From Thermoanaerobaculia bacterium (GTDB taxonomy: Bacteria; Acidobacteriota; Thermoanaerobaculia; Gp7-AA8), in assembly GCA_035569395.1 (NCBI GenBank), contig DATMNC010000002.1, positions 75,593 to 139,592 on the forward strand: a stretch of 64,000 nt of DNA, in the 5' to 3' direction. Both the position numbers and the translations under genes were made by a program. Positions 38-30,073 of the stretch are shown here, piece after piece (within the stretch, counting starts at the first letter, position 1; each line of letters begins with the position of its first letter). The notes below the pieces were generated by a model. That model saw nothing but the letters and a program-made list of their open reading frames with translations, was not told where the DNA came from and made no database searches.

Positions 38-245
38 GGGGTTGCTGGGTTGCTGGGTTGCTGGGTTGCTGAGTAGGGTCTCGCGGTCTCGGGGTTGCGC
101 GGTCTCGCGGTGGGCGATGGGTGACGACTGTGCGGAAACTCAAAGTCTGGCGACCAACTGAGCCTCGAAGGCGCAGCCCCGCGAGACCGCGAGACCGCGA
201 GACCGCGAGACCAGGTAACCAAGCAACCCAGCAACTCAGCAACCA
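38..245. repeat. Composite inverted-repeat element; arms are tandem octamers GGTTGCTG x4 and GGTCTCGC x4 mirrored by CGCGAGAC x4 and CAGCAACC copies
   Basis: Direct reading: 38-110 is the reverse complement of 170-243 around a ~60-bp unique centre; the six-frame ORFs here (34..249, 121..522) are translations of the repeats. Confidence 0.7.
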
Positions 246-268
246 TCATTTCCTCAACGCAGTAACCA

Positions 269-1042
269 TCACTTCCTCATCGCCCTCAACCTCTCATGCA
301 TCAACCGCAGGAGCTGCTCGCGGTCGAGGTTCTCGTGCAGCACGCCCTCGGTCGCGGCGGCGATCGAGCCATTCTCCTCCGAGATCACCAACACGAGGGC
401 ATCGCTGTCCTCGGAGAGGCCGAGGGCGGCGCGATGGCGCGTGCCGTGAGCCAGCTTCGGATCGGCGGACGTCGTCAGCGGCAGAAAGGCGCCGGCGGCG
501 ACGATGCGGTTGCCGCGGATGATGGCCGCACCGTCGTGGAGCGGTCCGCCGGGGACGAAGATGCTGATCAGCAGCTCCTCCGAGACGATGGCATCGACCG
601 GCTTGGCCGACTCCGCGTACATGCGCAGGCTCTGCGCGCGCTCGATGGCGATCAGCGCACCGATGCGATGCGCCGAAAGCACCGCCGTCGCGCCGGCGAT
701 GGCCTCGAACGGCACCGGTGAGGTGACGTTGGCCACGAGCGACAGCAACGGATTCGATGCCATCCGCGCCAGCGCGCGGCGGATCTCGGCCTGGAACAGC
801 ACGATCACCGCGAACGGCAGGTAGAAGAGGATCTCCCGCGAGATCGCCTCCAGCGCCGGCAGATCGAAGGCCCGGGCCACGAAGAACGAGCTCCCGAGGA
901 CCACCAGCCCGATCGACACCTGCATCGCCCGCGTCCCGCGGATCAGCGCCAGGATGCTGTAGATGACGAAGGCGACGATGGTGACGTCGATCGCATCGCG
1001 CCATGTGAACTGGAGGGAGAGAAGCCGGTCGTACCAGTTCAT
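269..1042 (-). CDS. cdaA: Diadenylate cyclase (c-di-AMP synthase) CdaA, membrane-anchored
   Basis: 257 aa; N-terminal hydrophobic helices; DAC-domain motifs DGAAIIRGNRIVAAGAFLPL and GTRHRAALGLSEDSDALVLVISEENGSI. Confidence 0.8.
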   Translation of the reverse strand: MNWYDRLLSLQFTWRDAIDVTIVAFVIYSILALIRGTRAMQVSIGLVVLGSSFFVARAFDLPALEAISREILFYLPFAVIVLFQAEIRRALARMASNPLLSLVANVTSPVPFEAIAGATAVLSAHRIGALIAIERAQSLRMYAESAKPVDAIVSEELLISIFVPGGPLHDGAAIIRGNRIVAAGAFLPLTTSADPKLAHGTRHRAALGLSEDSDALVLVISEENGSIAAATEGVLHENLDREQLLRLMHERLRAMRK

Positions 1043-1049
1043 ACGGCAC

Positions 1050-1115
1050 CTCCGGCGAGTTGTCTGCGGTTGCGCCGCGTTGTCTGCGCCTGCGGCGCGT
1101 TGTCTGCGGCGTGGC
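1050..1115. repeat. Three tandem copies of an ~18-bp unit (CGCGTTGTCTGCG core) in the cdaA-folP intergenic region
   Basis: gagttgtctgcggttgcgc / cgcgttgtctgcgcctgcggcg / cgttgtctgcggcgtgg read directly. Confidence 0.6.
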
Positions 1116-1236
1116 CGCGTGGCCGGTGGCTTGGCGTTCTCTGTATTACTAACTCTTGGTATCTGGGCGTGACGGGAAGATTTCGCAAAACGAGCCGTCG
1201 CCCCGAAAAGAGCTCGCGCCTTCCTAACGCCGAGAG

Positions 1237-1270
1237 CCCTTCTCCCCCAGCGCTTTTCAGCTGGGGGAGA
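1237..1270. other. Perfect 13-bp stem hairpin CTTCTCCCCCAGC-gcttttca-GCTGGGGGAGAAG
   Basis: Inverted repeat read directly; lies between folP 3' end and cdaA start on the minus strand; no U-tract on either strand. Confidence 0.5.
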
Positions 1271-1337
1271 AGGTGCCGAAGGCGGATGAGGGGGCGGTGC
1301 TTGCCATGTCCTCGACGGTATCCAGGTGCAGGCGCCG

Positions 1338-2120
1338 TCATCGCTTCGCCTCGATCGCCACGAGCACTTTCAGAAAATCGACCGTGGCACGCACATCGTG
1401 TACTCGTACGATCGCCGCACCGGCGCGTTGAGCGGCGGCGACGGCGGCCAGGGAGCCGAGGGCGCGGTCGGGGCCGGAGGGGCGTCCGGTCAGGTGGCCG
1501 ATGAAGGCCTTGCGCGAGGCGCCGATGACGACCGGGCCGAGCGCCGTCAGCTCGTGCGCCCGCGCCAGCAGCTCCAGGTTCTGGTCGAACGTCTTGGCGA
1601 AACCGATCCCGGGATCGATCAGGATCTTCCCTGGATCGACCCCGGCTTCGACGGCATCATCGATCATCGACGACAGCTCTCGGCTGACGTCGGTCACCAC
1701 ATCGTCGTAGACGGCGAATTGCTGCATCGTGGCCGGCTCGCCGCGCATGTGCATCAGGATCACCGGTACGCCGGTTCTGGCGACGACCGCGGCCATCCCC
1801 GCCGAGTAGCGCATCGCGCTCACATCATTGACCAGATCCGCCCCCGCCCCGATGGCCTCCTCGGCCACCTCCGCTTTGCGCGTGTCGATGGAGATCGTGA
1901 CGGCGCTCCGGCGGCGGATCTGTTCGATCACAGGCAGCACGCGGTCGATCTCGATTTGCGCCGCCAGAGGCTCCGCGCCGGGCCGTGTCGATTCCCCGCC
2001 AATGTCGATGATCGCCGCCCCATCCTCCTCCATCTGCAGCGCGGCATGGACGGCTTTCGATTGATCGAAGTGAACGCCGCCGTCGGAGAAGGAGTCGGGC
2101 GTGATGTTGAGGATGCCCAT
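1338..2120 (-). CDS. folP: Dihydropteroate synthase
   Basis: DHPS motifs GILNITPDSFSDGG, IDIGGESTRPGA, DPGIGFAKT; start placed at MGILN (Met30 of the six-frame ORF) because the upstream residues (HSTFNIEHST) are a translation of the TGTTGAA repeat. Confidence 0.85.
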   Translation of the reverse strand: MGILNITPDSFSDGGVHFDQSKAVHAALQMEEDGAAIIDIGGESTRPGAEPLAAQIEIDRVLPVIEQIRRRSAVTISIDTRKAEVAEEAIGAGADLVNDVSAMRYSAGMAAVVARTGVPVILMHMRGEPATMQQFAVYDDVVTDVSRELSSMIDDAVEAGVDPGKILIDPGIGFAKTFDQNLELLARAHELTALGPVVIGASRKAFIGHLTGRPSGPDRALGSLAAVAAAQRAGAAIVRVHDVRATVDFLKVLVAIEAKR

Positions 2121-2145
2121 CACCAATGGAGAGGCGTTCAAACCC

Positions 2146-2246
2146 AATGTTGAATGTTCAATGTTGAATGTTGAATGTTGAATGACCATGGCACACCGCC
2201 TCTTCATTCAACATTGAACATTGAACATTCAACATTCGACATTTCG
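2146..2246. repeat. Hairpin element of tandem TGTTGAA heptamers and their reverse complement (copy 1 of 2)
   Basis: aatgttgaatgttcaatgttgaatgttgaatgttgaatg ... cattcaacattgaacattgaacattcaacattc; same family at 29949-30073. Confidence 0.75.
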
Positions 2247-2261
2247 TCCCCTCTGAATGAT

Positions 2262-2345
2262 CGAGTGATTAGTAGATTAGTAGGTTCGTGGATCGGTGCG
2301 AAGTGCCCACTAATCTACTAATCCACTGATCACTTCCCCCTCACG
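2262..2345. repeat. Inverted-repeat element with GATTAGTA / CCACTGATCAC arms
   Basis: gtgattagtagattagtagg ... ccactaatctactaatccactgatcac; related element at 22290-22385. Confidence 0.55.
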
Positions 2346-3630
2346 AATCCCTCTCTCTCCGTATCCGCGCCCCCAGCGGATTCAGTCGTTCCTCGATCCG
2401 CTCGTACCCCCGGTCGATCTGATGAATGTTATGGATCACGCTCTCGCCTTTGGCACACAACGCCGCCAGCAGCAGCGCCATGCCGGCACGGATGTCGGGG
2501 CTGGAGATCTCGGCGCCGCTGAGCCGGTTGCCGCCGACGATGATGGCCCGGTGCGGATCGCAGAGGATGATGCGCGCTCCCATCTGGATCAGTTTGTCGG
2601 TGAAGAAGAGTCTCGATTCGAACATTTTCTCGAAGATCATCACCGTCCCCTCGGCCTGCGTGGCGATGACGATCATGATCGACAGCAGATCGGCGGGGAA
2701 GAGCGGCCACGGCCCGTCGTCGATCTTCGGCACCGCCGCCCCGATGTCGTAGCGGACGCGCAGTACCTGATCCTTCGGAACGCGGATATCCTGCCCTTCC
2801 ACCTTGATCTCGAGGCCGAGCTTTTCGAGCATGTAGCGCACCGCGTACATGTGATGCGGCACGGCGTCCTCGATCACCAGCTCGCTGCGCGTGACCGCGG
2901 CCAGGCCGATGTAGGAGCCGACTTCGATGTGGTCGCTGGGGATGTGAAACTCGCCGCCGTGCAGCGATTCGACGCCGCGGATGCGCAGCGAGTTCGTGGC
3001 GATCCCTTCGATCTCCGCGCCGAGGAGGTTGAGAAAGCGGCAGAGATCCTGAACGTGCGGCTCGGCGGCGGCGTTGTAAATCACCGTATCCCCCTCGGCG
3101 AGCACCGCGGCCATGATCGCGTTCTCGGTGGCCGTCACCGACGCCTCATCGAGGAACATATTCGTTCCGCGCAGCGCGCGCACCGACATCCGGTACTCCT
3201 GCGCCGAAACCTCGATCTGCGCGCCGAGCGCCTCCAGCGCCAGCAGGTGCGTGTCGACGCGCCGCCGGCCGATGGCGTCGCCGCCCGGCTTGGCGATGTT
3301 GGCCGCCCCGCAGCGCGCCAGAAGCGGCCCTGCCAGCAGGATCGACGCCCGGATCTTGCGCGAAAGATCGGGATCAGGATTGGACTTGCAGTCGCCCTTG
3401 GCGTGAATACGGACGACGTTCGGATCGAGCTTCTCGACCGACGCCCCGATCCCCTCCATGATCTGAAGCATGACCCGGACGTCCTGTATATCCGGCAGGT
3501 TGCGCAGAACGATGGCCTCGTCCGTGAGCAGGCACGCCGCCAGGATCGGCAGCGCCGCGTTCTTGTTCCCCCCCGGCCGGATGCGCCCTTCCAGACGGCG
3601 TCCGCCTTCGACGATGAATCGTTCCATCAT
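2341..3630 (-). CDS. murA: UDP-N-acetylglucosamine 1-carboxyvinyltransferase MurA (Asp at the catalytic Cys position)
   Basis: Colinear with MurA: GGNKNAALPILAA, AKPGGDAIGRRRVDTH (E. coli PGGCTIGARPVDLH), IHQIDRGYERIEERLNPLGARI; start at MMERF, since the first 38 aa of the ORF translate the upstream repeat. Confidence 0.85.
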   Translation of the reverse strand: MMERFIVEGGRRLEGRIRPGGNKNAALPILAACLLTDEAIVLRNLPDIQDVRVMLQIMEGIGASVEKLDPNVVRIHAKGDCKSNPDPDLSRKIRASILLAGPLLARCGAANIAKPGGDAIGRRRVDTHLLALEALGAQIEVSAQEYRMSVRALRGTNMFLDEASVTATENAIMAAVLAEGDTVIYNAAAEPHVQDLCRFLNLLGAEIEGIATNSLRIRGVESLHGGEFHIPSDHIEVGSYIGLAAVTRSELVIEDAVPHHMYAVRYMLEKLGLEIKVEGQDIRVPKDQVLRVRYDIGAAVPKIDDGPWPLFPADLLSIMIVIATQAEGTVMIFEKMFESRLFFTDKLIQMGARIILCDPHRAIIVGGNRLSGAEISSPDIRAGMALLLAALCAKGESVIHNIHQIDRGYERIEERLNPLGARIRRERDS

Positions 3631-3649
3631 GTGGCGGGGGATTGTATCC

Positions 3650-3851
3650 GCGGTTACGCGGTCTCGCGGTTGCGGGGTCGCGCGGTGGGTTGCTGGGTTG
3701 CAGAATTGCGGTTGCGGGGTGGCAAACAACCAGGAGCTGACCAAGTGTTAACAACCGAGCAACCTTGCAACCCAGCAACCACGCAACCCGATCGAACAAA
3801 CACCGCGAGACCGCGCAACCGCGAGACCCCGCGACCTCAATCCGCGCTACC
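3650..3851. repeat. Composite inverted-repeat element of the GGTCTCGC/GGTTGCTG family
   Basis: 3655-3740 is the reverse complement of 3760-3850 (cgcggtctcgcggttgcgg...gggttgctgggttgcag vs ctgcaacccagcaacc...accgcgagaccgcgcaacc). Confidence 0.7.
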
Positions 3852-4697
3852 ATAACCTCCGTGATCGTCGCCCCTCTCTCGTCCGGCAGCGCGGGCAATT
3901 CCTACTACTTCGAGAGCGACGGGACCTCCATCCTGGTCGATGCCGGACTGGGGCCGCGCGAGACGCGCAAACGGCTGGAACAGGTCGGCAAGACCATCGA
4001 GACCGTGCAGGCCATCGTCATCACCCACGAGCATTACGACCACATCCGCGGCGCCAGCGCCATCGGGCGCAAGTACGGGATCCCGATCTACCTGACCCAG
4101 GGGACGCTCGACAACAGCCGCATCGACCGCGAGGTGATCAAGACCGTTGTCTTTCTTAACGATTCGACGTTCACCATCGGTGAGTTGAACGTCCACGCCC
4201 GCCGCACGCTGCACGATGCCGCCGATCCGGCCTGTTTCGTGATCGAGGCCCGCGACGGCACCCGCGTCGGCGTCGCCAGCGACCTCGGGCACGCCGACGC
4301 GCCGGTGATCCGCCACCTCTCCGACTGCGACGGCCTTTTCTTCGAGGCCAACCACGATCTGGACATGCTGCGCCTGGGCAGCTACCCCTGGTCGCTCAAG
4401 CGCCGGATCATGTCCCGCTTCGGCCACCTCTCGAACGACGATTCGATGTCGGCCGTGCAGCGGATGATCGGCGCCGACCTCAAGAACCTCTGTCTGATCC
4501 ACCTCTCCGAGCGCAACAACCACGAGTCGATCGTCCGCGATATGGCCGGCCGCCTGTTGTCGCGCCTCGGCGTGACGAATCAACTCGAGCTATCGATCGC
4601 CAAACAGTTCGAAGCCACCGGCGTCTACGAGATCTCCCGCCGCCGCCCCACCCGCCCCCGCCTCCCGGCGCTGAATACGCAGATGGCGCTGTTTTAG
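3765..4697 (+). CDS. MBL-fold metallo-hydrolase (YycJ/WalJ-like)
   Basis: ILVDAGLG, ITHEHYDHIRG, GHLSNDDS motifs; the first ~30 codons of the ORF lie in the repeat element, so the true start is probably near 3861 (ITSVIVAPLSSGSAGN). Confidence 0.7.
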   Translation: MQPSNHATRSNKHRETAQPRDPATSIRATITSVIVAPLSSGSAGNSYYFESDGTSILVDAGLGPRETRKRLEQVGKTIETVQAIVITHEHYDHIRGASAIGRKYGIPIYLTQGTLDNSRIDREVIKTVVFLNDSTFTIGELNVHARRTLHDAADPACFVIEARDGTRVGVASDLGHADAPVIRHLSDCDGLFFEANHDLDMLRLGSYPWSLKRRIMSRFGHLSNDDSMSAVQRMIGADLKNLCLIHLSERNNHESIVRDMAGRLLSRLGVTNQLELSIAKQFEATGVYEISRRRPTRPRLPALNTQMALF

Positions 4698-5266
4698 GAG
4701 GGCGGTGCCGACGAAGATTTGCCAAGATCGGGAGCAACGGTCCTCAACTGCGTGAGGACGTTCTGCCCCGCATAGAAGAGCGGCCAGAGGGTGTCCCGTT
4801 TCTCGCCGAGATCGTGCTCCCGCCGTTCTGCCACGTAGACCGCCTCGCGCGTCCGAACATAGAAGCGGACGTGCGCGGGCGGCGGATAGGGGAAGTCGGA
4901 CGTCGCAGCCATCTGATTGAGATAACCGGCCGATTCCCGGACGAAGGCAATTGCCGCCCGCCGGACATTCTCGTGACGGATGCCGCCGATGATGCCTCCG
5001 CCGCTGCTGATGTACAGGCTGGCATCTCCCGTCAAGGCGGCCATTACGCTGGCGGTGGCGTTCGGGAACCCGATGTCCATGACCACGACCAGCGGTTCGT
5101 TCGCCTCTCCCGTACCGCCACCTGCGGGAACATCGCACAGCACGCCCCGCCGGAGCTCTTTCATCACGTTCCCATCGCCGCCACTCTTCCGCCGCGTCCG
5201 CGCCAGACCGGCAACGACGATGGCGACGACGCCAAGCGCGACAAGCAGCAAAAGGGACGTGCTCAT
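4694..5266 (-). CDS. Hypothetical membrane-anchored protein
   Basis: 190 aa, N-terminal TM helix (LLLLVALGVVAIVVAGLA), no family recognised. Confidence 0.45.
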   Translation of the reverse strand: MSTSLLLLVALGVVAIVVAGLARTRRKSGGDGNVMKELRRGVLCDVPAGGGTGEANEPLVVVMDIGFPNATASVMAALTGDASLYISSGGGIIGGIRHENVRRAAIAFVRESAGYLNQMAATSDFPYPPPAHVRFYVRTREAVYVAERREHDLGEKRDTLWPLFYAGQNVLTQLRTVAPDLGKSSSAPPS

Positions 5267-5550
5267 CCGCCGATGATACTAGGCCGGCACGGCCGGCAGC
5301 GTTGGTTGCCCAAGGCTCCGCCAGCAGTGGCGCAAGACGCTTCTGCCGCGCAGGCTCCCAGGCGGGGCTGACTTCCTCCTCGGGCTGATGTCTACTCCAC
5401 CGACACAGGCTGTAGGCCCCTCCAGACGGGCTCTCTGGACGTCCGCGGAGTGGAATCCTGCGCGTCATTTTCTGGTGTTCAGGACACGCTGTGGCGGTAA
5501 AGTGAGAATCTGGCAGCTCTGGTGTCTGGTTCGAAGGAGTCGAGGAACTC

Positions 5551-5841: not shown

Positions 5842-6110
5842 GAGATCCGGTCGAACGAATCCGCGACATGGTCGAAGCGATCGATCGCATCGAGCGTTAT
5901 GCCGAGCGGGGGAGGGAGGCGTTCGATCGCGATGAACTTATCCAGAGCTGGTTCATCCGCCATCTCCAGATTCTCGGCGAAGCAGCCCGCGCTCTGCCCG
6001 ATGACATCCGTCAGAAGGCCCCGGATATCGAATGGAAGAAGAGCATGCGGCATGTGCTCGTGCACGACTACTTCGGTATCGATCGAAACGTCGTGTGTGG
6101 GCGACGGTGA
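5838..6110 (+). CDS. HEPN-domain (DUF86, HepT-like) toxin
   Basis: R-x4-HxY motif in RHVLVHDY; 90 aa; ATGA overlap with the MNT gene. Confidence 0.75.
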   Translation: MRDPVERIRDMVEAIDRIERYAERGREAFDRDELIQSWFIRHLQILGEAARALPDDIRQKAPDIEWKKSMRHVLVHDYFGIDRNVVCGRR

Positions 6111-6179
6111 AAAGCGAGTTGGGGCCACTTAAGGCTTCTCTCGCGATTCTTCTCGTGAACCTTTCCGCTGAACCGCCAT

Positions 6180-6206
6180 CTTGAGATCACAAATTGTGAT
6201 CTCAAG
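6180..6206. promoter_or_regulatory. 27-bp perfect palindrome CTTGAGATCACAA-A-TTGTGATCTCAAG, candidate operator
   Basis: Read directly; 62 bp upstream of the dprA-like start codon. Confidence 0.4.
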
Positions 6207-6268
6207 ATCGCAGCCATCGCACGTCGGCGGCAACCACAGCCGGTCCGTTCTACGATCGGTGGATCGCA

Positions 6269-7060
6269 TTGATTCACGACTCCTTGAGTCTTCGCTCAGC
6301 AATCACCGCCTACCTCGAGTCACTCGAGCGTTGTAAACTCTTCCTACGCATGGCGACCGAGAACGCGCGAGTGATCCCGACCGAGATCGTGACACTCGAC
6401 CCTGCCGACGTGATGGGCGGCCTCAACGAATATGAGAGACGCCACGCTCCGGAGCAACTATTCGCTTGCGGCGAAGTTGCGTTGCTACGTGCGTCTGCGC
6501 GCGTCGCGGTCGTCGGATCGCGAAAGGCATCGCTGCCTGGTCGAAAGCGGGTGGCGAGACTCGTCAGCGCATTGGTCGAGCGCGATGTTGTGATCGTCAG
6601 CGGCCTCGCGGCCGGTATCGACACCGTAGCTCACGAAGAAACGCTCAGACGAGGCGGACGCACGATCGCAGTTCTTGGAACCCCGATCGACGAAGGGCAT
6701 CCCGCGGCGAACGCGCCGCTTCAGGCGCGGCTGATGAAGAGTCACCTCGTCGTGACGCAGTTTCCTGTTGGTCACCCCACGCTCCGTTCGAACTTCCCGC
6801 GGCGCAACCGCACCATGGCCCTTCTCTGCCACGCCTCCGTGATCGTCGAAGCTGGTGAATCGAGCGGGACGCTGTCCCAAGGGTGGGAAGCGCTCCGGCT
6901 GAACCGGCCACTGTTTATTCTCAAGTCGGTGTTCGAGAACGAAGAGCTGACCTGGCCCGAAGAGATGCGGGAGTACGGAGCGCAGGTGCTCGAAGATGTG
7001 GAGCAGATCCTCCACGTCCTTCCGATCGGACTTCCACCGCTGGAAGAAGTTGCTTTCTAA
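6269..7060 (+). CDS. dprA: DprA/Smf-family DNA-processing protein (Rossmann-fold core, no obvious C-terminal winged helix)
   Basis: VAVVGSRKAS, VSGLAAGIDTVAHEETL, TIAVLGTPID, FPRRNRTMALL, VIVEAGESSGTL match the DprA signature. Confidence 0.65.
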   Translation: MIHDSLSLRSAITAYLESLERCKLFLRMATENARVIPTEIVTLDPADVMGGLNEYERRHAPEQLFACGEVALLRASARVAVVGSRKASLPGRKRVARLVSALVERDVVIVSGLAAGIDTVAHEETLRRGGRTIAVLGTPIDEGHPAANAPLQARLMKSHLVVTQFPVGHPTLRSNFPRRNRTMALLCHASVIVEAGESSGTLSQGWEALRLNRPLFILKSVFENEELTWPEEMREYGAQVLEDVEQILHVLPIGLPPLEEVAF

Positions 7061-7094
7061 GTACACGTTCCCGGAAGAGGGGTGCCCCGTCGGC

Positions 7095-7325: not shown

Positions 7326-7339
7326 TAAATGATTTTGGC

Positions 7340-7660: not shown

Positions 7661-7679
7661 AGATACGAAGAGGGCGCCC

Positions 7680-9290: not shown

Positions 9291-9300
9291 ACTATCGACG

Positions 9301-13590: not shown

Positions 13591-13620
13591 GGTGAATGAT
13601 AAGCGCGCTGCGCGCGCGTT

Positions 13621-13721
13621 GTCGGTTGTCGGTTATCGCGGCTATCGGTCACTGACGTGCCAAGAGCCGGCACAGACAAGAGTGTCTGTGCCACATTGCA
13701 ACCAATAACCGACAACCGAAA
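13621..13721. repeat. Hairpin element: 20-bp palindrome CACAGACAAGAGTGTCTGTG (13671-13690) flanked by GTTGTCG heptamer arms
   Basis: Read directly; the same core recurs at 16061-16080 and 22261-22280. Confidence 0.7.
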
Positions 13722-16003: not shown

Positions 16004-16014
16004 GACTGCCTTCG

Positions 16015-16160
16015 GCGTTGGGGTGCTCGGTTACCGATCGCAGCAGCTGCCAAGTACCAGCACAGACAAGAGTGTCTGTGCCACATTGCCGGCGGCCTTC
16101 GGCCACCGACCACCGGCAACGCCGAAGGCAGACAACCGACAACGCGCCGAAGGCGCAGTT
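16015..16160. repeat. Hairpin element with the CACAGACAAGAGTGTCTGTG core (16061-16080) and inverted GCCTTCGGCGTTG arms
   Basis: Read directly. Confidence 0.65.
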
Positions 16161-16185
16161 ATAATCGGCGCACCCGTCTGAACCC

Positions 16186-19123: not shown

Positions 19124-19470
19124 CTGCGGTTGCGCGGTTGCGCAGTCTCGGGGTTGGGGGCGCAAGGTTGCAATGTACGACGCCGCGATAGCGGCTCAAG
19201 AAGGTAGCCAGGGGTGCGAGCGTTTTTTGCGAGCACCCCTGGAACCCGGTGCGATCTGAAGTCGTGCCGCGTCAGCGGCACTGGACGAAGTCCGATTGCT
19301 CAAGTGCCGCTGACGCGGCACCAAACTATGCATCTCGTTACCAGGGGTGCTCGCAAAAAACGCTCGCACCCCTGGCTACCGTCTTGTCGCCGCTAACGCG
19401 GCAAGAATCCCCAGCAACCCAGCAACCACACACCGCGAGACCGCGCAACCCCGAGACCCCGCAACCCCGT
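19124..19470. repeat. ~350-bp composite of nested inverted repeats: outer GGTTGCGC/GGTCTCG arms enclosing two copies of the CCAGGGGTGC...GCACCCCTGG hairpin and a GCCGCGTCAGCGGCAC palindrome
   Basis: Read directly; fills the space between two convergent gene ends; six-frame ORFs 19214..19396 and 19249..19533 are artefacts. Confidence 0.65.
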
Positions 19471-21329
19471 CACCCCAGCAGCTTCTCCAGCTCCGCAAGC
19501 AGCGCATCCGACTCGTACGGTTTCTGGAGGTAGCCGACGTGTTTTCCGACGACGTGATTCTTCAGAAGGTTCTCGTCGCCGTGGCCCGTGGAGAAGAGGA
19601 CGGGGAGGTTGGGCCAGCGGGAGGCAACCTCGTCGTATAACGTGAGGCCGTCGACGTCGGGCAGGCCGAGGTCGAAGATCACGGCGTCTGGCATTCGGGC
19701 GGCAATCCTGGCGACGGCCTCGGCACCGAGGCGAACCCAGTCGACGGAGATTTCCTCGTAATCGAGGAGCGCGGCCAGGCCGGTTCCGACGGAATCGTCG
19801 TCCTCGATCATCATCACGTGTGTTCCGGCCGGGAGCGTGTGGCCGGGTTGCCGCTCCTCCGGTTGCCGGGGGGGCGTGACCGCGGCCGGCTCGGCAGCGG
19901 GAAGGATGACGTGGAATGTGGTCCCCTCGCCCAGGATGCTCTCCGCGAAGATATGTCCCTCGTGCTGCTGCACGACCTGCGACGCCACGGCCAGACCGAT
20001 GCCAGTTCCTCCGAACTTCTTGGTCGTGAAGAGAGGCTCAAAAATATAGCGCAGCGTGTCTTGCGGCATTCCGATGCCGGTATCAGCGATCGTGAAATGC
20101 ACGGCATCGATGGGACGATCATTGCCGTTGCGCAGGGTATCGGCCACGGCGCGAACCTCCAGCCGGCCGCCGTTCGGCATGGCGTGATGGGCGTTGACGA
20201 CCATGTTCGCAAAGACCTGCCGGAGCTGATGGGCGTCGGCGAGCATGGTCAGCGACGGGTCGGCGTCGACGGTTACGGTAACGGCCGTACCGGCGAGCTG
20301 CTCCAGCTCCGACTGGAATGCCAGCAGCCATTCAGCGACGTTCACGGCCACGCGTGACGGTTCGGCGATGCGCGTGAAGCGTAGGATCTCCTGCGTGATC
20401 CGTTTGCCGCGCGCCACGGCGTCGGCGATGCGCGGGGCGGCCATTTTCACCGTCGGCTCCGATCCGGCTTTTCTGGTCAGGAGGTCGATGAAGGGCTGGA
20501 TTCCCATCAACACGTTGTTGAATTCGTGGGCGACCGATGCGGCCAGGCGTCCCAGGCTGGAAACGCGCTCAGCCTGCAGGAGCCTGTTCTCGAGCCGCCG
20601 CCGCTCGGTTACGTCCTGGACGACGCCGACGATCCGTATTGCGTTTCCGCGCTGATCGAGAACGCGTTGACCGCGCAGATGAAGGATCCGCTCGTTGCCG
20701 CCCGGCGTGCGGAAACGGTGCTCGACATCGAGCGGCAGATCTTCCGCCCGTGCTGTTTCGCAGGCGGCGGCAAAGCGATCCCGGTCGTCGGGGTGGACGT
20801 ACTTCGTCAGCAGCTCCGAGAGCGTAAGGCCACCGACCGGGTCGAGGTCGAGGATCTCCAGCAACTCCGCGGACCCCTCGATGGCGTCGCTGGGGATGTG
20901 CCAGCCCCAACTGGCGATGCGCGCCGTCTGCTGCGCCTGGCGAAGCTGCGCCTCGCGCTGCCGCAGCCGTTCGCTCTCGCCCACCGGGGGCTCAAAACCG
21001 TCGAGCGGCGTTCCGACGATCACGAATCCGGAAACCGCGGTGTTCTGACGTATGGGAGCCGCGGTCAGAAAGACCAGTCCGCCGTGGTGATCCACACGGC
21101 GTGCGCCCGACCACGAGCGCCCGGCGCGCAACTCTTCGAACAGCCGCGACGGCTCGGCGAGAGGGTCGTCCTTTGGCACAACCTCGCCCAGCGGCCGGCC
21201 GATAACCACGGAGGCATTCTTTCCGTACAACTCCTGAGCGCCGTGATTCCAGGACACGATCTTCCCCTCCAGGTCGGTTGCGATGACCGCCTGGGAGATG
21301 GAGTCAATCAAAGTCTCAGCGCCGAACAT
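19470..21329 (-). CDS. Hybrid sensor histidine kinase: PAS sensor domains, HisKA, HATPase and a C-terminal receiver
   Basis: H-box SVAHEFNNVLMGIQ; ATPase G-boxes (DTGIGM, GGTGIGL); C-terminal HVMMIEDDDSVGTGLAALL...PVLFSTGHGDE; start set at MFGAETLIDS. Confidence 0.8.
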   Translation of the reverse strand: MFGAETLIDSISQAVIATDLEGKIVSWNHGAQELYGKNASVVIGRPLGEVVPKDDPLAEPSRLFEELRAGRSWSGARRVDHHGGLVFLTAAPIRQNTAVSGFVIVGTPLDGFEPPVGESERLRQREAQLRQAQQTARIASWGWHIPSDAIEGSAELLEILDLDPVGGLTLSELLTKYVHPDDRDRFAAACETARAEDLPLDVEHRFRTPGGNERILHLRGQRVLDQRGNAIRIVGVVQDVTERRRLENRLLQAERVSSLGRLAASVAHEFNNVLMGIQPFIDLLTRKAGSEPTVKMAAPRIADAVARGKRITQEILRFTRIAEPSRVAVNVAEWLLAFQSELEQLAGTAVTVTVDADPSLTMLADAHQLRQVFANMVVNAHHAMPNGGRLEVRAVADTLRNGNDRPIDAVHFTIADTGIGMPQDTLRYIFEPLFTTKKFGGTGIGLAVASQVVQQHEGHIFAESILGEGTTFHVILPAAEPAAVTPPRQPEERQPGHTLPAGTHVMMIEDDDSVGTGLAALLDYEEISVDWVRLGAEAVARIAARMPDAVIFDLGLPDVDGLTLYDEVASRWPNLPVLFSTGHGDENLLKNHVVGKHVGYLQKPYESDALLAELEKLLG

Positions 21330-22206: not shown

Positions 22207-22214
22207 ATCCGCGG

Positions 22215-22378
22215 CTTCGCCGCGTTGTCGGTTGTCGGTTGGTTGCGCTGCGGCGCGGGGCACAGACAAGAGTGTCTGTGTCACATTGGTTCTCTACTTA
22301 ATCCACGATCCACTAGTCGACTATCCACAGGATAGGTGGATCAGGACCGCACTGCGTCCTGATCCACTGATCACCGGA

Positions 22379-22385
<7 letters not shown>
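22215..22385. repeat. Composite hairpin region: GTTGTCGGTTGTCGG arm, CACAGACAAGAGTGTCTGTG core (22261-22280), then ATCCAC...GTGGAT and CAGGAC...GTCCTG hairpins
   Basis: Read directly. Confidence 0.6.
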
Positions 22386-24901
<2,516 letters not shown>

Positions 24902-25032
24902 AGGGTCCTCCAAAGATTTGTATGCGGTGAGTTCCGCGAACCCGGGGGTTCGGGTAAGGGCGCGGATTGTAACAGACGGAGGTGATGGGGGTGGGGGCAA
25001 CGGAGCGCCGGCGTCCCGCCGCCGAGGCGCCA

Positions 25033-25090
25033 CAGAAACCAGAAACCAGAAATGGCGGCTGAGCGGAGCATTTCTGGTTTCTGGTTTCCA
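25033..25090. repeat. Hairpin of tandem CCAGAAA heptamers (CAGAAACCAGAAACCAGAAATG ... CATTTCTGGTTTCTGGTTTC)
   Basis: Perfect 20-22-bp arms around a 14-nt loop; upstream of hppA. Confidence 0.75.
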
Positions 25091-25148
25091 GCGGAAATGG
25101 TGGAGTCTCGCGGTTTCTGGGGGGAGGCGTGTGGGAGAATCAGGAGTC

Positions 25149-25319
25149 ATGAGCGCAGACCCTCTCGACAGTCTCGACGACCTCTCGGAGGAAGAGAGCG
25201 ATCGGCTCTGGGCGGAAGAGGCGGAGCGTAGGTTCGCGGACTATAAGGCGGGCAATGTCGAGGCGATACCTGCGGATGAGGTTTTCGCACACCTGAGAGC
25301 TCGTCTCCGGGCTAGATAA
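25149..25319 (+). CDS. Putative addiction-module antitoxin-like small protein (orphan)
   Basis: 56 aa MSADPLDSLDDLSEEESDRLWAEEAERRFADYKAGNVEAIPADEVFAHLRARL resembles the putative addiction module component family; no toxin ORF follows. Confidence 0.5.
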   Translation: MSADPLDSLDDLSEEESDRLWAEEAERRFADYKAGNVEAIPADEVFAHLRARLRAR

Positions 25320-25442
25320 GTCGAGGCGGCCGAACAAATGTCAAGCCGAGGAGCGGCGATATCTACGTAGCCCGCGGCGTGAACGGGCTGTTGAATAAGT
25401 AACACTGGGGAGCGCTAAGTGCTGCCGGTGTAGGATGCCCCG

Positions 25443-26543
25443 ATGCCCGGCGAGCGATCGCTGTCCGACGTTCTGCGCAACTCGCTGAATTATAGTGACT
25501 TGCCGTTTCGAGACTTCGTCGAGCTCGCTCTCTACCACCCCGAGTTCGGCTACTACGCGCGGCCGGAATCGCCGGTCGGACGGGAAGGGGACTTCATCAC
25601 GTCCCCTCTGCTCAGCCCGGTGTTTTCGTTCGCTCTCGGCAAGCTCGTCGATGAATTCATGAGCCGCGCTGGCGACGCCGTGTCGCAGGTCGTGGACATC
25701 GGATGCGGAGATGGCACGCTAATCGGTGCCTTGGCCCAGGGGGCCGGGGGGCGGTGCGATTTCTTCGGTGTCGACCGCAACCTCGGCCGCGCCCAACCGC
25801 ATCCGGGCGTCACCTACGCCATCTCTCTCAGCGATATCCCTCCAGCCGAGGCCCGCCTCATCATTAATAATGAGCTGTTCGATGCGTTGCCCTTCGCCCG
25901 GCTGGTTCAGCGGGGGGAGGAGCTGCACGAACTGTGGGTGACGGAGCGGGACGGTGCTCTCGACTGGACCGAGCATGAGGCGGATGCGCGGTATGACGAA
26001 TACTTCGCGGAGCGCGGCATCGAGCTGGACGATGGTCAGTTTGCCGATGTCTCGCTCGAATGGCCAGCGCTTTACGACGACCTTTGCCGCTTCGTGCAGC
26101 GGGGGCTGATCGTCACCTTTGACTATGGGCTGCCGCAGACGAAGCTCTTTCGCGGGCGGATGCGGCGTTTCGGAACGGCGGCGGCGTATTCGCGGCACCG
26201 CGTCAGCCGCGACCTTCTCGTCAATCCCGGCGAACAGGATCTGACGGCGCACATCAACTTCGACGATCTCCGGCTTACCGGCGAGAGGCAGGGATTCGCC
26301 ACGCGTTTCTTCGATATCCAGGCGAAGTTCCTCCTGGCGCTCGGCGCGGCGGAGCACGAGTTGCTGAAACCGGTCGGAGAGGTTACCGTCGACAACGCGG
26401 AGGACGGCGTGGCGTTGCTCGAAGCCCGCGACGATGCCCGGAGGCTCATCCTTCCGGATGGGATCGGAGCCGACATCCGCGTGCTCGCGCAGGAGCGGGG
26501 GATGGGGCGCGAGGAGTGGGTTTTTCAAACGAAACTGTTCTGA
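25443..26543 (+). CDS. MidA/NDUFAF7-like class I SAM-dependent methyltransferase (DUF185)
   Basis: [47 protein letters not shown]; immediately upstream of the nuo operon. Confidence 0.7.
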
Positions 26544-26566
26544 CTCGCGGGCACCTCAACGAATGG

Positions 26567-26594
26567 TTGACTCCTGTCAGTCGGCGTTTACAAT
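26567..26594 (+). promoter_or_regulatory. Sigma70-like promoter candidate for the nuo operon (TTGACT-N16-TACAAT)
   Basis: TTGACT at 26567-26572, TACAAT at 26589-26594, 27 bp upstream of the nuoA ATG. Confidence 0.4.
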
Positions 26595-26621
26595 ACCGGC
26601 GGTCTTTCGGACGGGCGAAAA

Positions 26622-26981
26622 ATGGCGAACTATTCAGTGCTCCTGGTGGCCGCGGCCATCGTTATCTCTCTCCCCGTACTGACGTTGTTCATCATTACCC
26701 CGCTCGTCCGCGCCTCACGGGGTGGCAAGGTCAAGCTGGAGCCGTACGAGTGCGGCATTCCGGCCAGCTCGCTGGCCATCGATCACCGGTTTTCGGTCCG
26801 CTACTTTCTGATCGCCGTCCTCTTCATCGTCTTCGACGTCGAGACGGTCTTCCTCTTCCCCTGGGCGATCCGCTTCAAACAGCTCGGCTGGTTTGGCGCG
26901 GTCGAGATGGGGGTCTTCCTGGCGATCCTGCTCGTCGGGTATGTGTACGCGTGGAAGAGGAAGGTTCTTTCATGGGTCTGA
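26622..26981 (+). CDS. nuoA: NADH-quinone oxidoreductase subunit A
   Basis: 119 aa, 3 TM helices, KLEPYECG and [12 protein letters not shown] motifs. Confidence 0.9.
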
Positions 26982-27694
26982 TCGAAAACCGCTTCGATCC
27001 AAACGTCCTCACCACTTCCGTCGACAAGTTTTTCAACTGGGCACGTAAGTCGTCCCTCTGGCCGATGCAGTTCGGGCTGGCTTGTTGCGCCATCGAGATG
27101 ATGGCCGTTCTCGACCCGCGTCACGACATGGCCCGCTTCGGCGCCGAGGTCTTTCGCGCCACGCCGCGGCAGTCCGACTTGATGATCGTCTCCGGCACAG
27201 TGACGGAAAAGATGGCGCCGATCGTCCGCCGGCTGTGGGACCAGATGCCCGATCCGAAGTGGGTCATCGCCATGGGCTCCTGCGCGACGTGCGGCGGTCC
27301 GTATGACACCTACGCCGTGACGCAGGGGGTCGACCGGCTGATCCCGGTCGATGTCTACATCCCCGGCTGCCCGCCGCGCCCCGAGGCGTTGATCTGGGGA
27401 CTGATGGAGCTGCAGAAGAAGATCGAGAAGATGCACGTCATCCGCAAGGGAGGGGAGTCGTACGACTTTGCCCGTGCGGCCGTGCGCGATTCGCTCCGGC
27501 CGGTGCATGAAGGACCGGCGCTTCGCGCGGAGCAGGCCAAGGCGCAGCTCAAGCAGGCTCCGATCTCGGGCATCAAGCGGACACCGATCGTCGAAGAGAA
27601 GAAGGCGAAGCCGGCGCCCGTTGCTGCCGCGGCCGTGCCGGTTGCCGAGGCAGTCGCCCCCGAAACGCCCGAAACAGAGGAAGAGATCAACTAG
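26972..27694 (+). CDS. nuoB: NADH-quinone oxidoreductase subunit B with a Lys/Ala/Pro-rich C-terminal tail
   Basis: [38 protein letters not shown]; ATG at 26972 preceded by GGAAGAGGAAGG; about 55-aa low-complexity tail. Confidence 0.9.
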
Positions 27695-27726
27695 CTGGCC
27701 GCTGACCTCGGCCACCGACCATCACC

Positions 27727-28716
27727 ATGACTGAAGTTCCCGAACAGCCCAAGCCAATTGCGCCCGCCGCTCCGGCGGCACGGAGCATCGACGAGATCAA
27801 GCGCGATCCGCTCGTTGCGCGCGCCTGCGAGCGCGCGGGCGACGCGATCATTGGGGCGAAAGAGTTCGTTGGTGAGATCTCGCTGACGGTCGATCGCGAT
27901 CGCATTGCCGAGGTGGCGCAGGTGTTCAAGGACGACGGGTTCAACTACCTCGTCGATCTCTCCGGAGTCGATTACTCGAACTATCCGTCCTGGACCGGCG
28001 ATCGCTTCGGCGTGTCGTACACGCTCTATTCCTTCTCGAAGAACAACCGCGTCCGGCTCAAGGTCACGACCGACGAGAACACGCCGATCCCTTCAGTGAC
28101 CTCGGTGTGGAAGACGGCGAACTGGCACGAGCGTGAGACCTTCGACATGCTCGGTATCGTGTTCGAAGGTCACCCGAACCTCGAGCGCATCCTGATGTGG
28201 GAGGGCTTCAACGGCCACCCTCTACGCAAAGACTTTCCGATTCGCGGCATCGACACCGGCGCGCGCATCTATCCCGAGGTCTTCCCCGAGGGTGGAGGAC
28301 CTAGGGCGGGATCGACCGGCAAGGATGTCAAAGACGTCAACATCTACAAGGGCGAATGGACGCATTACGGCACGTGGCCGGTTGCCGAGATCGCCGCTCG
28401 TGCAGCGGAGGGCGGACAAGCCCCGGCGCCGGAGCTTGCCGGCGTCGTCGCCGACACGGCCCAGCCAACCGAGGACGCGCCGTGGCACGATCCGGAAAAG
28501 GCGCTTCCGGAACGGATGGAGCTGGCCAAAGAAGGCAGCCTGAAAGACAAGCTGTTCGCCGCCATGGCCCAGACCGACTGCACCGCCTGCGGCTGGGACT
28601 GCGAGGGCTACGCCGCCGCGCTGGCAAGCGGCGAAACCAACGACATCACGCTCTGCGTCCCCGGCGAAGACGAGACCGAGTCGATGCTGAAGCAGTTGAT
28701 GGCGGGGAAACCGTGA
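27727..28716 (+). CDS. nuoC: NADH-quinone oxidoreductase subunit C fused to a C-terminal RnfB/CODH-delta-type 4-Cys Fe-S domain
   Basis: NuoC core FNYLVDLSGVDY...WHERETFDMLGIVFEGHPNLERIL; C-terminal ~145-aa extension with DCTACGWDCEGYAAALASGETNDITLCVPGE (compare RnfB N-terminus QCGQCGYPGCRPYAEAI...CAPGGE). Confidence 0.85.
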   Translation: MTEVPEQPKPIAPAAPAARSIDEIKRDPLVARACERAGDAIIGAKEFVGEISLTVDRDRIAEVAQVFKDDGFNYLVDLSGVDYSNYPSWTGDRFGVSYTLYSFSKNNRVRLKVTTDENTPIPSVTSVWKTANWHERETFDMLGIVFEGHPNLERILMWEGFNGHPLRKDFPIRGIDTGARIYPEVFPEGGGPRAGSTGKDVKDVNIYKGEWTHYGTWPVAEIAARAAEGGQAPAPELAGVVADTAQPTEDAPWHDPEKALPERMELAKEGSLKDKLFAAMAQTDCTACGWDCEGYAAALASGETNDITLCVPGEDETESMLKQLMAGKP

Positions 28717-28720
28717 TGAG

Positions 28721-28815
28721 CGCGGTTGCGAAGTCTCGAGGTTGCGCGGTCTCGCGGTGCTGCGCCGAGCGGCAAACCGCGCGACTGCGCGACCCCGAGA
28801 CCGCGCAACCGGGGG
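28721..28815. repeat. Inverted-repeat element of the GGTCTCGC/GGTTGCGC family inside the nuo operon (nuoC|nuoD junction)
   Basis: gcggttgcgaagtctcgaggttgcgcggtctcgcggtg mirrored by caaaccgcgcgactgcgcgaccccgagaccgcgcaaccg. Confidence 0.65.
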
Positions 28816-28827
28816 GAGGTCGGCGGC

Positions 28828-29943
28828 GTGTTTGACGTTCACGAAATGGAGGTCAACTTCGGTCCCCAGCATCCGTCGACGCACGGGGTGCTGCGGGTGA
28901 TTCTGAAGATTGACGGCGAACGCATCATCGACGCCAAGCCGATCATCGGCTACCTCCATCGCGGTACCGAAAAGCTGTTCGAGGCCATGTCCTATCCGAT
29001 GTGCATCCCGCATACGGACCGGATGGATTACGTCGCCTCGGCCACAAACAACCTCGGCTTCGTGGAGACGGTCGAGAAGCTGATGGGGATCACCAAGCAG
29101 ATTCCGAAGCGCGCGCAGCTCATGCGCGTGATGCTCAGCGAGCTGCAGCGGATCTCATCGCATCTTCTCTGGCTGGCCACGCACGCCATCGATATCGGCG
29201 CGATGACGCCGTTCTTCTACTGCTTCCGCGAGCGCGAGCAGGTCCTCGATCTTTTCGAGGAGTACTGCGGGGCGCGCCTGACGCTGAACTGCATGCGCAT
29301 CGGCGGCATGCCGGACGATCTTCCTCCGGACTGGCTCGATGGCGTCGAGAAGTTCGTCGACAAGTTCGAGGATGCCGTCGACGAGTACGAGTCGCTGCTG
29401 ACGAATAACCGCATCTGGAAAAAGCGCACCGTCGGCATCGGTGTCATCTCACCGGAGGATGCAATCGATTGGGGCATCACCGGCCCGCCACTGCGCGGCT
29501 CGGGCGTCGAATGGGATCTTCGGCGGGCGCAGCCTTACGAGTGCTATCCGGAGCTGAAGTTCGAGATCCCGATCGGCAAGAACGGCGATACCTACGACCG
29601 CTACCTGGTCCGGATGGAAGAGATGCGGCAGTCGAACTGGATCCTCAAACAGTGCATTCCGCTGGTGAAGGCGACGCCGGCAGGCGACATCAAGGCGAAA
29701 ATCTCGCGTGTGGTGCGGCCACCCGAGGGCGAGGTCTATCACTCCATCGAATCGCCGAAAGGGGAGCTGGGCTACTACATCGTCTCCGACGGCAAATCGC
29801 AAAGCGCCTATCGCTGCCACGTGCGCCCGCCGTCATTCGTCAACCTGCAGGCGCTGCCGGCGATGGCGAAGGGACACCTTGTTTCCGATTTGGTGGCTCT
29901 GATTGGGACCATTGATATCGTCTTGGGCGAGGTGGATCGGTGA
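28828..29943 (+). CDS. nuoD: NADH-quinone oxidoreductase subunit D
   Basis: NFGPQHPSTHGVLRV, RIGGM; start at GTG 28828 (GGAGGT 7 nt upstream) or ATG 28846; earlier part of the six-frame ORF translates the repeat. Confidence 0.9.
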   Translation: MFDVHEMEVNFGPQHPSTHGVLRVILKIDGERIIDAKPIIGYLHRGTEKLFEAMSYPMCIPHTDRMDYVASATNNLGFVETVEKLMGITKQIPKRAQLMRVMLSELQRISSHLLWLATHAIDIGAMTPFFYCFREREQVLDLFEEYCGARLTLNCMRIGGMPDDLPPDWLDGVEKFVDKFEDAVDEYESLLTNNRIWKKRTVGIGVISPEDAIDWGITGPPLRGSGVEWDLRRAQPYECYPELKFEIPIGKNGDTYDRYLVRMEEMRQSNWILKQCIPLVKATPAGDIKAKISRVVRPPEGEVYHSIESPKGELGYYIVSDGKSQSAYRCHVRPPSFVNLQALPAMAKGHLVSDLVALIGTIDIVLGEVDR

Positions 29944-29948
29944 TTCAG

Positions 29949-30073
29949 AAAAGCGAAATGTTGAATGTTGAATGTTCAATGTTGAATGTTGAATGGAACC
30001 GCTGGAACCACCGCGTGGCGAAGCCCTCATTCAACATTGAACATTCAACGTTGAACATTCAACATTCGCTTTT
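29949..30073. repeat. TGTTGAA heptamer hairpin element (copy 2), filling the nuoD|nuoH junction where nuoEFG normally lie
   Basis: aaaagcgaaatgttgaatgttgaatgttcaatgttgaatgttgaatg ... cattcaacattgaacattcaacgttgaacattcaacattcgcttttg. Confidence 0.75.

Follow-up and report, generated by a model that had tools for sequence, protein, structure and literature searches.

Mirror-array hairpins and a REP element in the intergenic spacers of a Thermoanaerobaculia contig

What are the strong hairpins that stand between the genes of a soil acidobacterium, and how did they come to be there? The question is raised by a stretch of 64,000 nt, here called the window, from a metagenome contig (DATMNC010000002.1) of Thermoanaerobaculia (Acidobacteriota). 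Two kinds of hairpin repeat are found between its genes: a 29-nt repetitive extragenic palindrome (REP), and the commoner, poorly understood mirror-array hairpins, in which a tandem array of short units is followed, beyond a loop, by an array of the reverse-complementary unit. With these two main layers the window is a mosaic of hairpin repeats resembling the bacterial interspersed mosaic elements (BIMEs). For the array hairpins the favoured reading, at a probability of about 0.5, is that they are families of non-autonomous hairpin repeats which propagate at the DNA level, are replaced rapidly and are reshaped by slippage.

Arrays were detected by Tandem Repeats Finder (TRF) together with an inverted-repeat scan over the whole window, and gene starts were taken from the calls on an identical ENA metagenome contig (ERZ27253680 k141_729102). 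A TRF-based census of the window and 180 related loci (1.6 Mb; loci are designated L with a number) yielded 134 mirrored pairs with at least 73 distinct units. The unit period is 7 nt in 104 of the 134 pairs (78%) and 8 nt in 26, and the number of units per arm, which has its mode at 4 and its median at 4.3 (~4.4), is equal for 7-mers and 8-mers. The median stem is 32 bp and the median loop 20 nt; the arms are 90% complementary, the loop sequence is free to vary, and the cassette is 85-110 nt long. A complementary partner lies within 350 nt for 80-100% of the 7/8-mer arrays (10/10 in the window, 79/99 in the genome loci and 69/79 in close nuoD relatives). The pairs are also handed: the 5' arm has more G than C in 117 and less in 11 of 128 pairs, or 52 against 7 when counted by distinct units (p = 1e-9). 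The density in the Thermoanaerobaculia lineage is approximately one array hairpin per 6-12 kb. Against the 10 mirrored pairs of the window, 100 second-order Markov simulations gave 0, among 2352 short arrays simulated. The array hairpins share the features of heptameric simple sequence repeats, namely tandem units of 7 nt, non-coding position, a mode of four units and convergent pairs. A CRISPR array was considered and rejected, the units being 7-8 nt long, contiguous and mirrored rather than repeats of 23-50 nt with unique spacers.

Two of the hairpins lie inside the nuo operon. The spacer between the nuoC stop (28716) and the nuoD start (28828) is filled by a GGTTGCG/GGTCTCG mirror-array hairpin at 28724-28811 (TRF; -73.6 kcal/mol, z = -7.6), and that between the nuoD stop (29943) and the nuoH Shine-Dalgarno sequence and start (30092) by an AATGTTG hairpin with 5.6 units per arm at 29957-30067, or 29949-30073 including its AAAGCG/CGCTTT foot (-61.5 kcal/mol, z = -8.8). 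The spacer from cdaA to cdaR, both on the - strand, holds a composite hairpin at 39-245, with outer arms of four GGTTGCTG units (39-71 and 217-245) and inner arms of 4.4 GGTCTCGC units (77-111 and 179-212). The fold of 30-255 reaches -133.8 kcal/mol (z = -11.7 against shuffles), and the z-scores of the other hairpins, from -5.3 to -9.0, are likewise far below shuffles. A second AATGTTG hairpin, with 5.6 units per arm and arms 90% complementary, is located at 2146-2243, approximately 25 nt upstream of the folP start (-; z = -6.5), and this family recurs in L005, L039, L076, L083 and L089. The GATTAGTA hairpin at 2258-2332 begins 9 nt past the murA stop (-; z = -9.0). Between the divergent murA and a gene of the metallo-beta-lactamase (MBL) fold a composite hairpin occupies 3649-3836, with outer arms of the CGCGGTCT type (3649-3686 and 3802-3836) and inner arms of the GGTTGC type (3686-3701 and 3752-3788). 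A GTTGTCG x3 hairpin at 13618-13719 carries a REP copy in its loop (-59.6 kcal/mol, z = -6.5), and between convergent genes stand the array arms GGTTGCGC/GGTCTCGG (19124-19156 and 19446-19478), 33 nt long and 82% complementary. A CAGAAAC x2.9 hairpin at 25033-25088 lies 132 nt upstream of the hppA start (24901, -; z = -8.1); its unit family is also found at the nuoD/nuoH slot of L109. Adjoining this hairpin is a small gene of the Unstab_antitox family (PF09720; 25149-25319), divergent from hppA.

The first-pass annotation had listed at least eleven sites of array hairpins in the window. Mirrored 7/8-mer arrays were recovered by TRF and the inverted-repeat scan at ten of the sites, among them those starting at 39, 2146, 2258, 3649, 13618, 19124, 25033, 28724 and 29957. 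The one placed at 16015-16160 is a good hairpin with arms that are not clean arrays: a long, imperfect hairpin whose loop carries a REP copy (16010-16127) is followed at 16128-16156 by GACAACC units and a GCGCC-GAAG-GCGC mini-hairpin (TRF row 16108-16154), and the fold of 16010-16158 reaches -72.4 kcal/mol (z = -5.3). Two further sites are weaker than listed. At 22215-22290 only the left array and a fixed palindrome are present, the array (GTTGTCG x2.6, 22224-22241, +) being solo and without a mirrored partner in a region that folds at z = -1.9, and the supposed GATTAGTA array at 22290-22385 is an ordinary 14-bp hairpin. The same annotation had held that the hairpins inflate open reading frames, and the gene calls on the identical contig agree for nuoD (start at 28828, not 28726) and hppA (24901, not 25150). 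The start of folP is at ~2121 instead of 2207, and that of murA, read from the sequence by eye, near 3630 instead of 3744, with the Pfam EPSP_synthase match beginning at residue 45 of the long frame. In two places the CCGACA of GTTGTCG-family arms is positioned 18 nt from a TATCAT/TATAAT hexamer (13596-13625, -, and 16136-16165, +), directly upstream of the genes for UPF0047 and the Ser/Thr kinase, and the arms may supply -35-like hexamers there.

The two nuo slots were compared in 23 relatives with 84-98% NuoD identity. The nuoD/nuoH slot is filled in 20 of them, with 14 different unit families, and is empty in 3, where the stop and start codons overlap (ATGA/GTGA). The nuoC/nuoD slot holds a mirrored array in 14, a solo array in 2 and a hairpin of a different type in 1; the other 6 have nothing in it. 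L104 and L105, which are 93-94% identical in DNA, differ in both slots (empty versus TTAGCTG at nuoC/nuoD, CACAGAG versus GAAGGAT at nuoD/nuoH). The left flank TGAttcaRaaaagcg is common to the window, L103 and L104, and is followed by AATGTTG in the window and by CACAGAG/CACAAAG in L103 and L104. In the cdaA-folP-murA ortholog L061, three of four spacers contain other families, and the spacer between a methyltransferase gene and the nuo promoter (TTGACT-16-TACAAT) is filled in some relatives and empty in others. The turnover of cassettes outpaces a sequence divergence of 6%, with architecture and handedness constant.

The same families are also dispersed. One family may occupy two slots of one genome, as GCAGAAC does in L112 and AATGTTG in L113 and in the window. 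Within AATGTTG hairpins an internal AATGTTC variant unit is kept in at least five unrelated contexts in five genomes, with loops that cannot be aligned, and in the CACAGAG 3x8 family the structure is retained in contigs with only 62% NuoD identity. The repertoires are specific to genomes: OY970284 and the window have GGTTGCTG, GGTCTCGC, GGTTRTC and AATGTTG, and JADGNY and JAXDIO have mostly GGGNGTC. The elements are not confined to the window, since 4 further array elements were found in the 19.5 kb of the contig outside it; with identical families at unrelated loci and in other genomes, the dispersed-family idea of the first-pass annotation is borne out for the array hairpins. AATGTTG arrays are also present in 17 viral-contig stretches of IMG/VR (L182-L198) with 40-56% GC, a base composition far from that of the lineage, which extends the phenomenon past Thermoanaerobaculia. 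Several of these arrays are one family with a conserved loop (TTAGGCTAGCGCC...GGCAA), and in the IMG/VR stretches approximately half of all 7/8-mer arrays are mirrored, at ~4.4-4.7 units. Palindromes and short repeats can confuse short-read assemblers, and hairpins could in principle be collapsed or chimeric repeats; yet the architecture occurs in dozens of independent assemblies, including the complete OY970284.1 and OY970380.1, and a second sample (JGI 3300050821) has the same proteins with almost all gene-call coordinates equal across the hairpin slots. The chance of an assembly artefact is negligible.

The position of the hairpins relative to genes is regular. They begin 0-10 nt past a stop codon and end 11-22 nt (mostly 15-22) before the next start, so that the room left on their 3' side is the Shine-Dalgarno sequence only; cdaA-cdaR, murA-folP, nuoC-nuoD and nuoD-nuoH are examples within operons. 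A tight hairpin probably keeps the upstream stop and the downstream ribosome-binding site adjacent, and would be tolerated inside operons in this manner. Near nuoA, such array hairpins as occur stand between the stop codon upstream and the promoter-like TTGACT-16-TACAAT. This promoter-like sequence, at 26567-26594 in the window, is conserved in nearly all relatives. By crude gene calls in the genome loci, array hairpins occupy 29 of 291 co-directional, 12 of 92 divergent and 3 of 106 convergent spacers. Strong GC-containing stems past stop codons might be taken for intrinsic, possibly bidirectional, transcription terminators, but convergent spacers are then the least occupied, the opposite of what terminators would lead one to expect, and hairpins lie inside the nuo and cdaA-cdaR operons. 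No U-tract follows the 133 stems inspected (T fraction 0.16-0.29, ~0.2, at +1 to +12). A terminator scan of the window reported no array hairpin as a whole, yet it reported a canonical one at 39881-39913 (15-bp stem, then a T-rich tail), which indicates that the genome also uses ordinary intrinsic terminators. It is therefore highly improbable that the array hairpins are terminators.

A more serious rival is that the hairpins are functional RNA stem-loops evolving in place. A stem between cistrons would be selected as an exonuclease barrier, as an RNase III site or as a holder of the stop codon and ribosome-binding site, and slippage with compensatory change would renew its sequence. The persistence of a structure whose sequence turns over, with the nuoD/nuoH slot filled and the nuoC/nuoD slot mirrored in most relatives, is what such selection would produce, and the steady distance of the 3' foot from the start codon, the very stable folds and the rarity of hairpins in convergent spacers compared with spacers preceding a gene start (41/383) point in the same direction. 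Units in one slot are also often one substitution apart (GCAGAAT/C/G/A), and the CACAGAG/CACAAAG difference is found in all six units of L103. Other observations are at odds with it. A complex variant pattern is repeated at unrelated loci and in other genomes, the repertoires are genome-specific, the arm sequence is conserved across species beyond the needs of RNA pairing, and hairpins are present in divergent promoter regions too. Among arm mismatches in co-directional contexts, 55 are G:U-compatible on the sense strand versus 89 on the antisense strand, and transversions form the largest class (175); the fewer sense G:U mismatches and the excess of transversions leave no wobble signature of selection at the RNA level. 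Functional RNA is the main rival, possible but less likely than propagation at the DNA level, and it and a mobile origin can both be partly true.

Nesting of the hairpins bears on whether they act as DNA. The composites nest both ways, GGTTGCTG standing outside GGTCTCGC at 39-245 and inside it at 3649-3836, and unrelated families are nested as well (GGGNGTC around GGTTGCTG, GTGGGGA around GAATGTT). The loops in the window contain REPs (13670 and 16060) and a palindrome of 230 nt (19176-19404) that is like a MITE (miniature inverted-repeat transposable element). At the nuoD/nuoH slot of L106 (~1667-3005) an IS3-type insertion sequence (IS) lies between AATGTTG arms (OrfA, HTH_Tnp_1, 42 bits), and at that of L124 (~6060-6560) a four-helix-bundle gene of the 23S_rRNA_IVP family (120 bits) follows GAGTTGT arrays. 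REP, MITE-like, IS and IVP inserts in loops suggest that the hairpin apexes are preferred landing sites, and hence that hairpins or cruciforms form in DNA.

The arms themselves change independently. Expansions of one arm were found (9.6 versus 4.0 units; 10.4 versus 4.1 units), and in L130 the units are uniform within an arm, yet every one is mismatched to the opposite arm, which indicates that slippage and homogenisation act within arms. Correction of quasi-palindromes by template switching, as a force that maintains the mirroring, was rejected on these grounds, and descent from a symmetric founder accounts for the mirror symmetry better than continuous copying from arm to arm would. The peak at four units per arm, the G-runs of the GGGNGTC family and a published precedent (PMC4692102) invite the explanation given for the GGGAATC repeats of Xanthomonas, namely G-quadruplexes or i-motifs in which four units supply four G-tracts. 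No GGG run is present in any window unit detected by TRF, however, and in the relatives such runs occur only in families such as GGGNGTC. The window families without G-runs (GGTTGCTG, GGTCTCGC, AATGTTG, GTTGTCG, CAGAAAC and GATTAGTA) mostly have ~4 or more units per arm all the same, and in the 80-100% of arrays that have a complementary partner a quadruplex would face competition from a duplex stem. The families without G-runs already contradict the explanation, and a quadruplex origin of the class is very unlikely.

The fixed palindrome noticed in the first-pass annotation was found exactly at 13670, 16060 and 22260, and is a REP element. On the other strand the 29-mer reads CAAT-GTGG-CACAGACA-CTCT-TGTCTGTG-C, that is, a GTGG tag and an 8-bp stem with a 4-nt loop; the GTGG variant of the REP tag is documented (PMC3733652). 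The copies occupy 13670-13698, 16060-16088 and 22260-22288 (all -), the last being the variant with T at the Y position. Among the matches listed, more than 100 are exact, including some in the complete chromosomes OY970284.1 and OY970380.1, and the titles are nearly all Thermoanaerobaculia, the rest being Acidobacteriota/Acidobacteria or Candidatus Angelobacter. In 790 kb of related DNA 203 copies with up to 4 mismatches were counted, a number that gives no density per genome as these loci were chosen by the 29-mer pattern. Of the copies, 70 are +/- neighbours, mostly 38-45 nt apart, and inverted doublets are the prevailing arrangement, as in the REP doublets known as REPINs. A gene for a REP-associated tyrosine transposase (RAYT) was identified in L095, from the related metagenome-assembled genome Chersky.9_17 (5003-5509, -, 168 aa; NCBIfam NF047646 REP_Tyr_transpos, 84.1 bits at a cut-off of 80; Pfam Y1_Tnp, 30.7 bits at a cut-off of 23), with a 29-mer doublet on each side. 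Chersky.9_17 also has a cdaA-folP-murA ortholog with 81-86% DNA identity. A tblastn search with this protein over the window and L001-L181 (~1.6 Mb of loci) gave no second copy and none in the window. The tag, the palindrome, the doublets and the REP-flanked RAYT are all alike to the described REP/REPIN-RAYT systems (PMC2817692, PMC3116915, PMC3733652). A search of one literature library found no paper joining Thermoanaerobaculia and REPs, and a published survey of GTAG-REPs does not list Acidobacteria among the phyla with such repeats, so the 29-mer appears new in a known class.

The suggestion that the hairpins are REP/BIME or MITE-like elements served by a RAYT thus applies to the fixed palindrome, and for the arrays it is an analogy only. 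The array arms are non-palindromic and their units too many, and the sole RAYT in the ~1.6 Mb is flanked by 29-mers, not arrays. Logos of 12 nt on each side of 133 stems show no base above 47% at any position and no tag, so that no GTAG-type tag stands beside the stem as in a REP. No direct repeats that would indicate target-site duplication were seen in filled versus empty slots (L104/L105 at nuoC/nuoD, L117/L113 at methyltransferase gene/nuoA), nor any signal in the flanks. The array hairpins lack the characters of MITEs, and no parent insertion sequence was identified for them.

According to the favoured reading, cassettes would land in the spacers between stop codon and Shine-Dalgarno sequence and in the loops of existing hairpins, would be lost and replaced quickly and, once settled, would be reshaped by replication slippage and by homogenisation of units within each arm. 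Architecture, dispersal, turnover and nesting are established by the data; for the copying route we infer that a single-strand hairpin may be handled by a HUH/RAYT-like enzyme, attractive in that such systems leave no target duplication, or that templates may be switched during replication. Sequence-specific recognition is made less likely by the many unit families and by the missing tag. Several observations weigh against DNA-level propagation. No enzyme is linked to the array hairpins, and the only RAYT keeps company with 29-mers; the units, at least 73, exceed any plausible count of sequence-specific transposases; and neither a conserved terminal tag nor a target duplication marks the insertions. 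The whole spacers of L104 and L105 differ, including the Shine-Dalgarno region, and recombination with old alleles could mimic insertion. The very high occupancy of the two nuo slots could mean selection for a hairpin there. Finally, mismatches between arms fall preferentially at a single phase of the unit (138 of 236, a value reached in 0 of 2000 permutations; null 94.5 +/- 4.1), so that each family has a core that is conserved and a single position that is free, as in GGGNGTC. Simple copy-and-decay does not predict this pattern.

This last pattern would suit arrays that are cooperative binding sites, read as unspaced 7/8-bp units by DNA- or RNA-binding proteins whose oligomer is matched by four units. 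The constant ~4.4 units for 7-mers and 8-mers and the order of the units, direct and then inverted, are also compatible with such sites. The layout recalls ribbon-helix-helix proteins on heptad or 8-bp met-box arrays, as in the omega and MetJ operators. Against such binding stand the at least 73 units and hundreds of sites per genome, the free swapping of units at one slot and the location of sites in the coding-strand spacers of housekeeping operons, and no candidate protein is known; protein binding is rated as quite unlikely. A wider version of DNA-level propagation holds that the mirror-array hairpins are a distinct and widespread class of self-propagating prokaryotic DNA that is copied by structure rather than by sequence, through hairpin-primed or template-switch synthesis or by a hairpin-specific HUH enzyme. 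A single process would then lie behind the short tandemly repeated repetitive (STRR) sequences of cyanobacteria, the GGGAATC arrays of Xanthomonas and the arrays of viral contigs (40-56% GC), and the rules of four units and of a G-rich 5' arm would be independent of G-quadruplexes. This wider proposal is speculative and of low probability.

Smaller repeats accompany the two main layers. The MITE-like palindrome of ~230 nt inside the GGTTGCGC/GGTCTCGG arms is composed of three hairpin modules (TTGCCGCGTTAGCGGCAA at the ends, GGTAGCCAGGGGTGCGAGCGTTTTTTGCGAGCACCCCTGG and GTGCCGCGTCAGCGGCAC); it recurs with 81-92% identity in L036, L013, L003 and L021, and in L036 the element lies between two REP 29-mers. 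A 20-mer, GTTGTCTGCGGCTGCGCCGC, is repeated three times in tandem at 1059-1120, between the cdaA start and the folP end, and also adjoins the 230-nt element in L003. A further dispersed repeat of small size is the hairpin CCTTCTCCCCCAGC...GCTGGGGGAGAAGG at 1236-1275, which has copies of ~90% identity in L018 and L019. In the nuoK/nuoL spacer (32749-32870) three successive hairpins fold with z = -6.4. The first of them, CATCCTGACGGAGCGCGAAGCGATCCGTCAGGATC, belongs to a family with arms GTCATCCTGAGCG...GAAGGATC that is also present at nuoJ/nuoK of L112, L115 and L117 and upstream of nuoD in L124. A segment of 80 nt at 53684-53765 has two ~90% identical copies in L015, and its fold is no more stable than those of shuffles (z = -0.6); a stretch of coding or regulatory sequence may be repeated here.

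The genes around the repeats were assigned by Pfam and by the calls on the identical contig. The genes murA, folP, cdaA and cdaR are all on the - strand, with the MBL-fold gene divergent from murA. The nuo operon comprises 11 genes (nuoABCDHIJKLMN, 26622-38143) in the form without nuoEFG, and a PF04060 Fe-S domain is located at the C-terminus of NuoC. Other genes of the window encode UPF0047, a Ser/Thr kinase, a histidine kinase, a response regulator and HppA. Rfam at the gathering threshold gave no match over the whole window, and ARAGORN found no tRNA and no tmRNA in it.

For decades short heptamer arrays have been on record from cyanobacteria, Xanthomonas and Beggiatoaceae without an accepted origin or function, and Thermoanaerobaculia offers an unusually clean system in which to study them: nearly all are mirrored, the families are many, the elements are dense, and orthologous operon slots of dozens of relatives can be compared. 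A four-unit rule that holds for units unable to form quadruplexes, a strict handedness and the rapid exchange of cassettes in a core operon are likely to surprise the specialist, and they open an old question to testing. Should a dedicated copying mechanism exist, the hairpins would represent mobile DNA of a new kind; if they are selected, they would be a general device for the spacing of cistrons in operons. In practice the hairpins inflate the open reading frames called for folP, murA, nuoD and hppA, and REPs, MITEs, insertion sequences and IVP genes use them as landing sites.

Among known systems, BIMEs are alike in being intergenic mosaics of hairpin modules in alternating orientation. The modules differ. 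Those found here comprise the REP 29-mer, the palindrome of 230 nt, mini-hairpins of the form GCGCC-TTCG-GGCGC, the tandem 20-mer and the arms of the arrays; nothing in enterobacterial BIMEs corresponds to the array hairpins. REPINs share with the array hairpins the intergenic position, the hairpin shape with conserved arms and a free spacer, the lineage-specific populations, the absence of target duplication and the presence inside operons. Unlike REPs, the array hairpins have non-palindromic arms of tandem units and no GTAG/GTGG tag, and their families outnumber RAYTs. In cyanobacteria, Mazel and colleagues reportedly described in 1990 STRR heptanucleotides in tandem, intergenic, with several unrelated families per genome, and small dispersed or mobile repeats embedded in STRR contexts are said to have been described by Elhai and colleagues in 2008. 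Most STRRs stand alone as direct arrays that vary in length, whereas the mirrored form of about four units is the rule in Thermoanaerobaculia. The TAACTGA repeats of Beggiatoaceae, cyanobacteria and Bacteroidetes stand as 2-6 units just upstream of starts, and of their sets 169 are direct and one is indirect (MacGregor 2015; PMC4679880). Their single unit sequence is shared by distant phyla, comparable to the AATGTTG arrays in viral contigs of 40-56% GC; they are almost all direct, in contrast to the mirrored arrays of many units described here, and like the STRRs they are a related form that is solitary.

The closest precedent is found in Xanthomonas, and tandem heptamer arms are less exceptional than the first-pass annotation had supposed. 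Rehm et al. (2015; PMC4692102) described the heptamers GGGAATC and GGGGA(C/T)T of Xanthomonas and Nostoc as non-coding and genome-wide, with a preference for four units. Xanthomonas has 70-75 convergent array pairs per genome, with the G-rich array first and able to form a stem-loop, and its arrays lie near stop codons on the coding strand and near start codons on the non-coding strand (PMC4692102). The GGGAATC arrays vary between related species and have no known function, and G-quadruplexes were proposed for them (PMC4692102), an explanation that does not carry over to the present units, most of which have no G-runs. The heptamers, the four units, the inverted pairs and the placement at stops and starts are common to both. 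The basic phenomenon has this precedent, and the array hairpins of Thermoanaerobaculia differ from it by dozens of unit families per lineage instead of one, with whole families swapped at a single slot; by near-complete mirroring (80-100%, where Xanthomonas has a minority of its arrays mirrored and Nostoc 'only a few'); by units of 8 nt in addition to those of 7; and by divergent spacers that are not avoided.

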